Below, piece after piece: positions 19,139-32,093 of a DNA stretch of 64,000 bases (the stretch's first letter is position 1; each line of letters starts with the position of its first letter). Made by a program: the position numbers and the translations under genes. The notes below the pieces were generated by a model. The model saw nothing but the letters and a program-made list of their open reading frames with translations. It was not told the origin of the DNA and ran no database searches. This DNA comes from Gammaproteobacteria bacterium (lineage in GTDB: Bacteria > Pseudomonadota > Gammaproteobacteria > Berkiellales > Berkiellaceae), in contig JAXMEB010000006.1 in NCBI GenBank assembly GCA_046348545.1, positions 50,163 to 114,162 of the forward strand, in the 5' to 3' direction.

Positions 19139-19543
19139 TTACCAGCAAGTTGTTGGGCTTGGCCCCTTTATATTCGTGTGCGTGATAGTCAAGGGCGAGC
19201 AGGTCGTATCACTAGCTTGTGGACCGCCAGCAACAGGGGTTGCGTTTAAGGTATAAGTCGTTGCTGTCAGATTGGTGATAGTCATATTGTAGTAACCTTC
19301 AGGCGATGTAGCCGCAACGCCTAATGTCGCAGTGGTTGCGCCGACATAAGTATTATTTTCTGTGAAATAGTGCTCCATTCGTGCCGCCATGTTAAGGAGT
19401 GCAGCTTGACCATCAGAACGGCGTGTTTTACGCATTTGGTCATTATAGGCGGGATAAGATATAGCGGCTAATATTCCTACAATAACAATAGCGACCATTA
19501 GCTCAATCAAAGTAAATCCGACATGTTTTGTATCAAAGCTCAT
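19139..19543 (-). CDS. pilE: type IV pilin-like protein PilE
   Basis: Prepilin leader and N-terminal helix ..HVG-FTLIELMVAIVIVGILAAI... Last gene of the minor-pilin cluster. Confidence 0.85.
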   Translation of the reverse strand: MSFDTKHVGFTLIELMVAIVIVGILAAISYPAYNDQMRKTRRSDGQAALLNMAARMEHYFTENNTYVGATTATLGVAATSPEGYYNMTITNLTATTYTLNATPVAGGPQASDTTCSPLTITHTNIKGPSPTTCW

Positions 19544-19546
19544 GAC

Positions 19547-22500
19547 CTAATTAACCTCCTGCCAAGTTTGTCTGCCACTGACATTTTGTCCTGGATTCTC
19601 TCTTACGCCAGAAACACCACCGGTTCCGCTTAGCACTTTTACTTCACTATTGCCCTCTTGCGTTGTCATTACAGTCGGTGCGGCTGTTACGCCAACATCT
19701 GACATCACGCCAGCAGGCGGGGCTTTAACTTTGATTGTACTAGAACCTTGCTGCTCATTGAACTCGATGTAGTCAGAGGAATCAAAAGCCACATCACCAT
19801 TCACATCGAAGGGTGGTATTGCAAGGCGCCCACCATTCTTTGCATCCAACTCCATCAGCCAGCTGGTTGCCCTGAAAGTAGAGCATTGAGCCTCGCCATT
19901 TGAGCCAGAGGGAATCGTGGTTGTGAAGATAACGCGCCCATTTCTGAGAATGGGTTTGCTCGTGGCTCTCTCTCCTGTTGTCAAATCTAGGTACCATCCA
20001 TTTTGGGTTGTCCAGTTAATCTGATTGTTACTGACCGCTCTATAGTTATCAACAGTCCCTAATATTTTTTGCTGCAATAGCGTTGACTTGCCCGAAAAAC
20101 TCGTTGCTGTCGTTCCATTCTTATCCCAAATCGCATACATAGTTTGGGTGGACTGACTAGCTGGGTTTAGATCATTGGTTTCAATGAATTTGCCGGTTCC
20201 AAAATAAACCAAAAATCCCTTATCTAACCCTTGTGGGTGTGGTGCTACGACGGGTGCATTCAAAATAGGCTGTGAGGTGCCAGCACTATAGAGTTTTGAT
20301 ATCTTTGCGCTGGTTTTCCAAGTTGTTGGGGTAGTGGCTCTCACATCGAATCGCCACATATCTCCATTTAAATCCCCAGCATAGATATAATCAACCGTAA
20401 AATCTCCGTTGATATCAATGGCTGTGGGCTCAGATAACCCATTTTTTGTTCCGGTAGCACCCACGGGTATTTTGATATAATCTGTGTCCACTGTCCATGT
20501 GCCGTCAGTCCCGCCCTCTATGAAGAGTATGTATAATACGGCTTGGCCTGAGGTAGAGACTCTTGAGTCGGTTGTACCCGATGGGTATTGGTTTGTTGTG
20601 CTGTTGTACCCATTTCCAAAAATAACAGCCCATTTCTTGTTGTACATTCTAACAATTTGAGGGGTTCCAAAAGTATATCCGACATCCACATCGTTTGCGT
20701 CAGTGAATTCCCAGAGTACTTTACTGGCTGCATCAGCCGCAGAATTAGCAAAATTACCATCTGTGATATCAAGTGCAAAGACCCCCTGTCCTCCTAGACC
20801 TAGACCACTAGCCAGCACTGTGCGCCAATTTGTTGAGCCAGAGGGTAGGTAATCCGCTACGGCAGGTGTTTCATCGACAAAATAGCGGTGCGTGTATGAA
20901 TCTTTGGTCAACGACTGCAAATTACTCCAAATAGCAGGGTGCGCAGGCACATAAGCTACCATTTCAGCGCCAGTATTGGCATTGAATCCGTGTAGCATGC
21001 CATCATTTGCGCCGACGAATATCATGGGAGTTCTATTCTTATAAGTATTTTTGAAATTAAGATAATACGGGTCCGTGTATAGAGCCTTAGGAGGACCGAC
21101 ATACACTGAACCAGAATGAATCACATCCCCCATGATCGAAGAGCGGTTTCGATAAGTGCCACCTTTATCAATTTCCTTCGATTGATCGCCACGAAGATAC
21201 CTTATCCGCTCATTACCGATTGTAGCCCTTGAAGCGCTTGAGATATCGGAAACGAGGAGATTAGTCTGTGCTAATGGGATTTCGGAAGTGGTCGGCGACA
21301 GATAATTTACCGGCCAGTTGAAGACCACACCTCTTTTGTTCCCATAGGTGTACACGACGCGGTTCGTTGGTGAAATATTTTTGAGCTGAGCGGCTGCGCT
21401 CCAAATGGGTTGCGCTGTGTTAATATTGCCATTGCTATCAATGAGGAGCGCTTTTAAATCGCCTGACCAATCCGTATTTTTAAATTGTGCTTGATAGATA
21501 TGAGTGTTGTCTATCAACATTGATGAGCTGCTGGCGGAGGTCGAGCCAGAACCGAGCATAGCCGCTAGAATGCCTTGTAAGCTGGTAGAAAGGCCTGCCT
21601 GTAAATCTTCGAAATTGTTTGCTGCGAAAAATTGTCCCTTTGAATTAAAAGCAGCATGCCATAAATCATTTATTTTTGCTGGACAATCATCATTACAATC
21701 AGGATTGCCCCAATTGCTATTGATATTCATTTTGGGCGTAGGCCAGCCGTCTGCACCTGCGATGAGGTTGCCCGTTGCGCCAAATGCAATCCCCATGGTA
21801 TTCATGTGTTGCATGGTATTGGGATCCTCTTTTGTGGGGGCAACATTGTTAGCCATATTCGTGAGCAAATCATTTTTATAGTAGTGGTAAGCAACGTCGG
21901 ACAATGTCGAATATCTTGAGCCATATCCATCACCATCTACATCACCAAGCCTGGGTCGTTCTAAATTGGTATCGTTCCAGTAACCGTCGGTCATCAGAAT
22001 TGAAAAATTGCGCTGACAGCTTGTTTTAATCGGTGATGTGCCCAGTTGACCTGCATAATAACGACCTGCGGCATTGAGTGCAGAGACTAACGGAGTACCA
22101 ACAGCTTCTTGCTGTTTAACAAAGTATTGTCTCATTAAAATATTATTACTAGCTGTGAGGTCATCATTTAAGCCAGGTAGCTTGTTAGCTATGTTGCTGC
22201 CGTTATTAATGTAACTCAGGCCATAGTACAGTCCTGGGAAATTCGTGATGATGTAGCTGACCGCTGCTTTAGTGCTGAGAGAACGACGACGGTTGTATTC
22301 AAACCAATTAGCATAGTTTTGTTGCGCATTCGCGATAGTACGGCAACCTGGGCCGTTCGCCGCAGTAATGGCACGAGTTCCGTTAATGATTTCTTGCACT
22401 AAGTTTTGTGGTCCTAGAGCATCAAAACAAGTCGAATTGCTAGATAGCGTGGTAGTTTGAATCGTGTTCTGAATCGCTTGTGCATTGGTTGAACGAACGG

Positions 22501-31359: not shown

Positions 31360-31466
31360 AAATTAATGAGATCGATTCACTTAATTATATTTATAGCTCG
31401 TATGCTGCTCAGTACGGGGCTTTCGAAGTCTCAGTTGGCAGACCGTTTCATTTATTTGAATATTTT

Positions 31467-32000
31467 TTAGGGGCAGTTCACATTTGTAACACTGGTTCTA
31501 CCTGTTGTAGAGATGTTTAAATTTCTAGCATGATCCGATTTACAGCCTTGAGCATAAATGGTGAAAGTAACATTACTCGTTCCCGGGGCCGCAAACCCTG
31601 AACTCTTGTAGGTGAGCAATGAAACATTTGGTGATGGAGAAATCAGATGGTTACTGCCTGTGAGTTGTTCGCTTCGGATCAGCACTTCGGTCGTGTTATT
31701 TGCAAAGGTACCATTTTCATCGGGATTCACGAATACAAGCCATCCTTGTGTCCAATCATTGCCACAAGCTGAGAAATTTGCATCAGCTGTGGGACAGATA
31801 GAGACACTTAATCCCCGTTTGATGGCTTCAGAACGCGCTAATTTAAGACCAAAAAGAAGACTGTTCGTGGCAGAGACAGACCTATTATTTTGCACGAGTG
31901 AATAAAAACTTGGAATGGCAACCACTATCACTATAGCTAAAATCACAACAGTGACTAGCATTTCGATCAGTGTGAAACCGCGAAGAATTTTAAGCATCAT
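31467..32000 (-). CDS. fimU: GspH/FimT-family minor pilin (FimU position)
   Basis: MMLKILRG-FTLIEMLVTVVILAIV.. followed by a GspH-type domain (..NSLLFGLKLARSEAIKRG..). Confidence 0.75.
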   Translation of the reverse strand: MMLKILRGFTLIEMLVTVVILAIVIVVAIPSFYSLVQNNRSVSATNSLLFGLKLARSEAIKRGLSVSICPTADANFSACGNDWTQGWLVFVNPDENGTFANNTTEVLIRSEQLTGSNHLISPSPNVSLLTYKSSGFAAPGTSNVTFTIYAQGCKSDHARNLNISTTGRTSVTNVNCP

Positions 32001-32093
32001 ATATATTGGAATAGCAAAGTATTCCAATACTGCAAGTTATACTCTTCCCAGTTTGAATTTATGCTTTTGCTTGTCCGTCCGAAGCTCGCAAGA

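Follow-up and report, generated by a model that had tools for sequence, protein, structure and literature searches.

The window analyzed here, a 64,000-nucleotide (nt) stretch of contig JAXMEB010000006.1 from a member of the Berkiellaceae (assembly GCA_046348545.1), carries a type IVa pilus (T4aP) minor-pilin operon in which the core of pilV, pilW, pilX, and pilY1 is present as two diverged, adjacent sets, hereafter called module A and module B. We hold with moderate confidence that this is an ancient doubled core, which would provide two alternative cognate tip complexes for a single pilus machine. The arrangement is conserved and ancient and is no peculiarity of this genome, nor does it involve a new mechanism or protein family.

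Assignment of the open reading frames (ORFs) with Pfam and NCBIfam gave the minus-strand order pilS-pilR-fimT-fimU-[pilV-W-X-Y1]A-pilY2-like-[pilV-W-X-Y1]B-pilE over positions 19139 to 35714 (Table 1), bearing out the original prediction of fimU-[VWXY1]-small ORF-[VWXY1]-pilE on one strand. fimU and pilE are single copies that flank both adjacent sets, so that neither set has its own FimU or its own locus, and family searches of the ORFs found no second GspH-family gene between fimU and pilE. The genome, the only representative of its genus (2.81 Mb in 10 contigs, 99.9% complete), contains two PF05567 genes, both at this locus and each preceded by its own pilV-W-X. Stops and starts had been described as overlapping; in fact, neighboring genes either overlap or are separated by gaps of 3 to 13 nt, the exceptions being 73 nt upstream of pilV-B and 107 nt downstream of fimU, and this tight spacing suggests a single transcription unit.

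We then compared the two modules with each other. Protein identity between A and B is 39% for PilY1 (full length), 35% for PilX, 40% for PilW, and 33% for PilV, while the DNA of the modules shares merely five patches of 44 to 95 nt at 68 to 77% identity. These values rule out a recent duplication, gene conversion, or an assembly artifact, in agreement with the original view of a divergent doubling of the whole module. No module gene contains an internal stop. PilV and PilW of both sets retain prepilin leaders (G|FTLLE, G|FSIIE, G|FTLTE, and G|LGLVE), and both PilX-A (QQG|TVLIA) and PilX-B (QQG|TVLVA) have Ala at +5 instead of Glu; apical subunits of the PilX/PilK/GspK type lack Glu5 as a rule (PMC7541494, PMC12918778). 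Pairwise alignment of the two PilY1 proteins recovered every previously noted motif island (DDSGSMDWE, DLWHAAFNSKG, GANDGM(L/M)HGFNA, and DINGDxxxDYIYAGD), and both proteins have DxSxS and TDG motifs of the metal ion-dependent adhesion site (MIDAS) type, a propeller, and a DINGDxxxDY loop predicted to bind calcium. Both also match Protein Data Bank entry 3HX6 (A, E = 4e-75 over residues 697 to 1273; B, E = 3e-64). Their identity is lowest at residues 1 to 270, residues 600 to 700, and the last 60 residues. The Ca-loop-like repeats DLNHDGIFDNKD and DINGDGVNDY, formerly considered extra to copy A, are both found in PilY1-A; however, the first has a counterpart in PilY1-B (DVNGDVAFDSSD), and the second does not.

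To place the doubling within the Berkiellaceae, the sole family of its order, we searched the 36 species representatives and mapped the twelve locus proteins across 20 kb at each locus of the family. PilY1 is encoded by 26 of the 36, and only this genome has two full adjacent copies, which excludes the doubled operon as the norm among the representatives. In genera g7, g5, g9, g10, and g12, the locus reads fimU-V-W-X-Y1-(Y2)-pilE and is entirely of A type, pilY1-A sharing 50 to 59% identity with the lone PilY1 of other Berkiellaceae. A profile built from four orthologues places the pilY2-like gene immediately behind pilY1-A at about 22 loci of the family. Thus, the standard operon corresponds to module A with pilY2 and pilE, and module B is inserted after pilY2 and ahead of pilE.

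Other members of the family keep parts of the doubled operon. Genus g2 has fimU-VA-WA-XA-Y2-VB-WB-XB-Y1B-pilE, i.e., the doubled operon minus pilY1-A (L117:10851-16127, L122:12581-17766, and L113:8825-12670). In one g2 genome (G012), an A-type pilY1 stands alone on another contig with no adjoining minor pilins, and in a second (G001), no A-type pilY1 was found. In g8, the largest genus of the family, an additional, intact pilW lies between pilY2 and pilE in 11 of the 13 mapped genomes. This lone pilW-B (L098:11426-12217; likewise in L099, L100, L103, L105, L106, L108, L110, L114, L115, and L123) has no B-type pilV, pilX, or pilY1 beside it in any of the eleven loci, and it appears to have outlasted the loss of the other module B genes. 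Across the representatives, 11 retain only pilW-B of module B, and about 10 retain none of it.

Querying 5.8 billion proteins with PilY1-B revealed closer relatives on metagenomic contigs L124, L125, L126, and L128, with 87%, 69%, 58%, and about 45% identity, respectively. L124, L125, and L128 carry the complete doubled operon together with the same ispH-lspA-ileS flank, and L126, a short contig, reads Y1-V-W-X-Y1-pilE without a pilY2 gene. As to the earlier proviso that the doubling might be the rule in the wider family, it is kept in these four relatives down to 45% PilY1-B identity, yet in just one of the 26 PilY1-positive representatives. A separate B-type set comprising a GspH-like gene, pilV, pilW, pilX, and a pilY1-B of 47% identity lies at a noncanonical locus on a further contig (L127:7535-13747), where it adjoins a Glyco_transf_88-family gene; evidently, the B module is able to relocate.

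Both modules are equally conserved, with 81 to 88% protein identity to L124 and 70 to 78% to L125. We estimated the ratio of nonsynonymous to synonymous substitution rates (dN/dS) by the Nei-Gojobori method (NG86) against L124, the comparison with L125 being saturated. All eight module genes gave values of 0.03 to 0.09, compared with 0.04 for ispH and 0.05 for lspA; dS is saturated at 1.4 to 2.5, so these values are rough, while their direction is safe. The original prediction had named inactivating lesions as grounds for rejecting it, and the sequence contains none. Thus, the intact genes and the strong purifying selection indicate that neither module is a relic.

The PilY1 tree gives one and the same branching order for the A and the B copies, ((window, L124), L125), L126; L128-A groups with genus g7, and L128-B falls inside the B clade. 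The B clade has a support of 100, and together with the family A clade and two outgroup proteins (L021 and L024), it splits from the other outgroup PilY1 proteins at a support of 98 to 99. In the PilW tree, a clade with a support of 100 unites the PilW-B of the window with the B copies of g2 and the eleven solitary genes of g8. The presence of the doubled operon in relatives and the shared branching of A and B show that the doubling is older than the divergence of several genera and has been lost many times, in whole or in part. We propose that an ancestor of the Berkiellaceae would have doubled the pilVWXY1 core inside a fimU-pilVWXY1-pilY2-pilE operon, most simply by tandem duplication, with copy B ending up between pilY2 and pilE. 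Both copies would have been kept intact under purifying selection in this genome and a few relatives, and other lineages would have shed parts of one.

The trees weakly favor in situ duplication as the simplest reading of the origin of module B. Alternatively, an early Berkiellaceae ancestor may have acquired module B horizontally from a related gammaproteobacterial lineage and inserted it between pilY2 and pilE, which we regard as unlikely. Such an event would fit the long stem of the B clade (0.41 to 0.43), whose placement relative to A and L021/L024 is not settled by the trees, the A-plus-B grouping having a support of 22%. It would also fit the stand-alone L127 set, whose own GspH-like gene and separate locus indicate that the module can move, as well as the proposed horizontal acquisition of PilY1.3 in Myxococcus xanthus (PMC13190605). 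On the other hand, the search of 5.8 billion proteins yielded no closer PilY1-B relative from outside the family, the best tree puts A and B together on one side of a branch, and the hits with at least 43% identity whose contigs were read (5 of 7) all come from Berkiellaceae-type loci. Moreover, the four B genes are nearest to family A genes or about equally near to A genes and outgroups, and module B has the same G+C content overall (GC) and at third codon positions (GC3) as its neighbors. The phylogenies that had been called for thus established an old A/B divergence and co-branching, but they separate duplication from acquisition only at the 22% support for A plus B.

In Pseudomonas aeruginosa PAO1, the operon fimU-pilVWXY1Y2E has pilS-pilR-fimT upstream and ispH-lspA-ileS downstream. 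The same neighborhood here therefore marks the locus as a canonical, vertically inherited site. A recent foreign island is ruled out by this pilSR/ispH site, by the lack of a closer PilY1-B outside the family among the proteins searched, and by base composition, the GC and GC3 of both modules being those of the window.

In T4aP systems, four minor pilins and PilY1 prime pilus extension and remain at the tip (PMC7541494). At the very C-terminus of PilC/PilY1, ~10 residues enter PilK/PilX as a β-strand, at the interface with PilJ/PilW, and a quaternary PilI-J-K-PilC "licensing complex" has been proposed on recent structural evidence, the GspH-type subunit being believed to join it later (PMC12918778). 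The unit copied in the Berkiellaceae is exactly the PilV/PilW/PilX (GspI/J/K-like) and PilY1 core, with FimU and PilE left single, so that the limits of the duplication match the proposed licensing complex (PMC12918778). Furthermore, the C-termini of PilY1 differ by clade. PilY1-A ends in GRQSWRQLMP, and five A-type proteins end in GRQxWRQ(L/I) with one to five more residues behind it (xP in three proteins). PilY1-B ends in GRQTWQEVN; five of six B-type proteins end in GRQ(T/S)WQEV(N/Y), and the sixth, from the stand-alone L127 set, ends in GRQSWQTLN. Clade-specific ends conserved over such deep divergence fit two separate cognate tip complexes, as far as sequences can tell. A single PilM is encoded in the genome, alongside the usual PilB/PilT-type ATPases; the genome thus has one T4aP machine.

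On this basis, we suggest that the two modules would build two alternative, internally cognate core complexes, in which each PilY1 would dock by its own clade-specific C-terminal β-strand into its own PilX/PilW. The single, common FimU and PilE would join both complexes to the filament, whose major pilin would also be shared, and one T4aP machine would thereby assemble pili bearing either of two adhesin heads. The original proposal of two alternative tip complexes is therefore plausible and has gained strength from the clade-specific C-termini, although we infer its main elements (cognate pairing, use of the modules as alternatives, distinct binding targets, and transcription as one unit) from the genes.

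Besides the roughness of the dN/dS values, several points weigh against this proposal. For cognate pairing, the evidence is a single feature, the conserved C-terminal difference. Since PilY1-A and PilY1-B have an identical architecture, a difference in their targets is assumed. Genus g2 retains A-type PilV/W/X without pilY1-A in the operon, which hints that subunits may be usable across modules. The A-plus-B grouping, by which in situ duplication is weakly favored, has the low support given above. Finally, scans between the modules for σ70 promoters, terminators, and the σ54 consensus found none above chance, so that they favor neither a single operon nor separate control of module B.

A split of the modules by task, one priming pili for adhesion or twitching and the other serving, e.g., DNA uptake or surface sensing, would fit two conserved and intact sets, but we think it improbable. 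Acinetobacter baylyi divides tasks in this manner between a ComB/ComC/ComE/ComF set and its FimU-PilVWXY1 set. PilC/PilY1 proteins act in twitching, DNA uptake, and adhesion (PMC12918778), and the M. xanthus sets are used under differing conditions, with regard to calcium and TfcP (PMC8833165), one cluster being undetected under laboratory conditions (PMC7541494). Nonetheless, the sequences of neither set show a competence-specific mark (the competence genes of the genome were not searched), and the domain layout is identical in both PilY1 proteins. The ComP_DUS match belongs to the single shared pilE and is a match at the family level only.

It is less likely still that the modules are not strictly orthogonal, their subunits mixing into more than two tip types, or that the parasite switches tips between life stages, e.g., one for host attachment and entry and another for a different surface. 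Such readings could follow from the exact PilV-PilW-PilX-PilY1 limits of the copied unit, with FimU and PilE in common, taken with the natural deletion series of a full double here, a double without pilY1-A in g2, and a solitary pilW-B in g8. If either were true, the Berkiellaceae would be a natural system in which to map the compatibility rules of pilus tip assembly. That one module is a redundant or silent relic heading for loss is very improbable: most representatives have indeed lost some or all of module B (11 keep pilW-B only, about 10 nothing), and the g2 operon has lost pilY1-A, but this genome and four relatives of 45 to 87% identity have all eight genes intact, dN/dS is at the level of the housekeeping neighbors, and both copies keep the leader peptides, MIDAS motif, Ca loop, and C-terminal strand. 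A decaying copy is rejected on the dN/dS values together with the intact orthologues.

Compared with the two conserved tip sets proposed here, known systems are similar in part. The Pseudomonas aeruginosa operon fimU-pilV-pilW-pilX-pilY1-pilY2-pilE comprises the same families in the same order, with a PilY2-like gene after pilY1-A here, and its PilY1 structure (3HX6) is matched by the C-terminal half of both PilY1 proteins; in contrast to P. aeruginosa, a second, diverged pilV-pilW-pilX-pilY1 set lies between pilY2 and pilE. M. xanthus has three PilY1 and minor-pilin sets, interpreted as alternative priming and tip complexes that differ in their properties (PMC7541494, PMC8833165, PMC13190605). 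It resembles the Berkiellaceae in having several complete sets for one T4aP machine and PilY1 proteins that are conserved in the C-terminal domain and diverged in the remainder. However, its sets form three separate clusters, each with its own FimU, whereas those described here are adjacent, in one apparent operon, with a common FimU and PilE; likewise, the N-termini of its PilY1 proteins differ in domain content, whereas both PilY1 proteins here keep the same N-terminal architecture. In Neisseria and Kingella, the adhesin is the only component known to be duplicated; its genes lie at separate loci, and both paralogues use one PilHIJK set. PilC1 and PilC2 are likewise two PilC/PilY1 paralogues per pilus, with a C-terminal strand that docks into PilK (PMC12918778), but in the Berkiellaceae the PilV/W/X partners are doubled too.

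We also surveyed a sample of 400 gammaproteobacterial genomes, in which 148 genomes outside the Berkiellaceae carry PilY1. Tandem full sets, on the same strand and 7 to 8 kb apart, occur in at least 4 of the 148 (G341, G365, G122, and G310, the last with three sets); this is a lower bound, taken among the matches listed, with 24 matches beyond these. Related loci include one with three sets (L037), one with two divergently oriented sets (L083), and one with two PilY1 genes after a single V-W-X (L031, from Sansalvadorimonas). Two unrelated Gammaproteobacteria (L037:321-22978 and L016:3049-19782) have three complete sets each, every set with pilE and mostly with fimU. In most other tandem loci, the repeat unit brings its own fimU and/or pilE, unlike the Berkiellaceae unit. 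The PilY1 copies of G341 and of Sansalvadorimonas are sisters, indicating younger, independent duplications, whereas the doubling in the Berkiellaceae is older than the genera of the family. A literature search found no paper dedicated to in-operon tandem minor-pilin sets.

Berkiella in culture live inside amoebae as obligate intracellular and intranuclear bacteria and have type IV pilus genes (PMC9803151). Several interchangeable PilY1/minor-pilin sets per machine are an existing working model in Myxococcus, of which this locus is a compact example from hardly studied obligate intracellular amoeba parasites. The novelty implied in the original prediction is not supported: the doubled operon is found in four relatives, eroded versions occur in the family and tandem sets elsewhere, and the concept is published for M. 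xanthus. What is mildly new is the common-FimU/PilE architecture, the match of the duplication limits to the licensing complex, and the natural series of losses in the Berkiellaceae. These graded losses could guide experiments on which tip subunits need to be cognate.

Table 1. Genes of the doubled minor-pilin locus and its flanks (window coordinates)
Feature	Position	Strand	Assignment
pilS-like sensor kinase (upstream flank)	34095..35714	-	PF25323 6TM_PilS, HisKA, HATPase_c
pilR-like sigma-54 response regulator (upstream flank)	32749..34116	-	Response_reg + Sigma54_activat + HTH_8
fimT-like GspH-family minor pilin	32343..32786	-	PF12019 GspH, E 3.8e-9
fimU, GspH-family minor pilin	31467..32027	-	PF12019 E 4.7e-17 + N_methyl
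pilV-A	30766..31359	-	TIGR02523 type_IV_pilV E 4.1e-22; leader G|FTLLE
pilW-A	29972..30769	-	PF16074 E 5e-23; leader G|FSIIE
pilX-A, GspK/PilK-type, no Glu5	29439..29978	-	PilX_N E 1e-14 + PilX
pilY1-A, 1276 aa, A lineage (main lineage of the family)	25600..29430	-	PF05567 E 7e-44
pilY2-like small secreted protein, 101 aa	25284..25589	-	PF14481 E 1.3e-4, below cut-off
pilV-B	24650..25210	-	TIGR02523 E 3.1e-30; leader G|FTLTE
pilW-B	23884..24690	-	PF16074 E 4e-23
pilX-B, no Glu5	23274..23891	-	PilX_N + PilX
pilY1-B, 1237 aa, B lineage	19547..23260	-	PF05567 E 6e-53
pilE	19139..19543	-	ComP_DUS E 9e-25 + N_methyl
ileS-lspA-ispH, convergent housekeeping flank	14639..19009	+	tRNA-synt_1, Peptidase_A8, LYTB

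Some gene starts in Table 1 were chosen among alternatives. For pilW-A, the ATG at 30769 was taken, the open frame extending to 30841 and the orthologues having 265 amino acids (aa); for pilW-B, the ATG at 24690 was deduced from orthologue lengths, with an open frame that extends to 24846. PilY1 lengths of 1238 and 1276 aa had been given before. The latter holds for PilY1-A, and the former is that of the collection entry for PilY1-B, but the ATG at 23260 gives 1237 aa (a GTG at 23362 would give 1271 aa). pilV-A is 88% identical to its L124 orthologue, and pilE is 59 to 70% identical to the pilE of other family members.

The gene between the modules, previously regarded as an unnamed small ORF, is corrected to a PilY2 homologue on the grounds of its conserved position after pilY1-A and a PF14481 match of 21.9 bits, below the 25-bit cut-off. 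It is far less constrained than the module genes (dN/dS, 0.2 to 0.5), and the PilY2-like protein evolves far faster than its neighbors, its identities of 58%, 38%, and 24% comparing with 88%, 76%, and 59% for PilY1-A. In L126, the pilY2-like gene is missing from a 180-nt gap.

Elsewhere in the window, the σ54 consensus TGGCAC-N5-TTGC is matched at two plus-strand sites (46234-46248 and 47339-47353) spaced by about 1105 nt, one match being exact and the other having one mismatch. In the housekeeping flank, IleS (14639-17596) has 985 aa, compared to 943 in L124, 945 in L125, and 939 in L128, an excess of 42 residues over L124.

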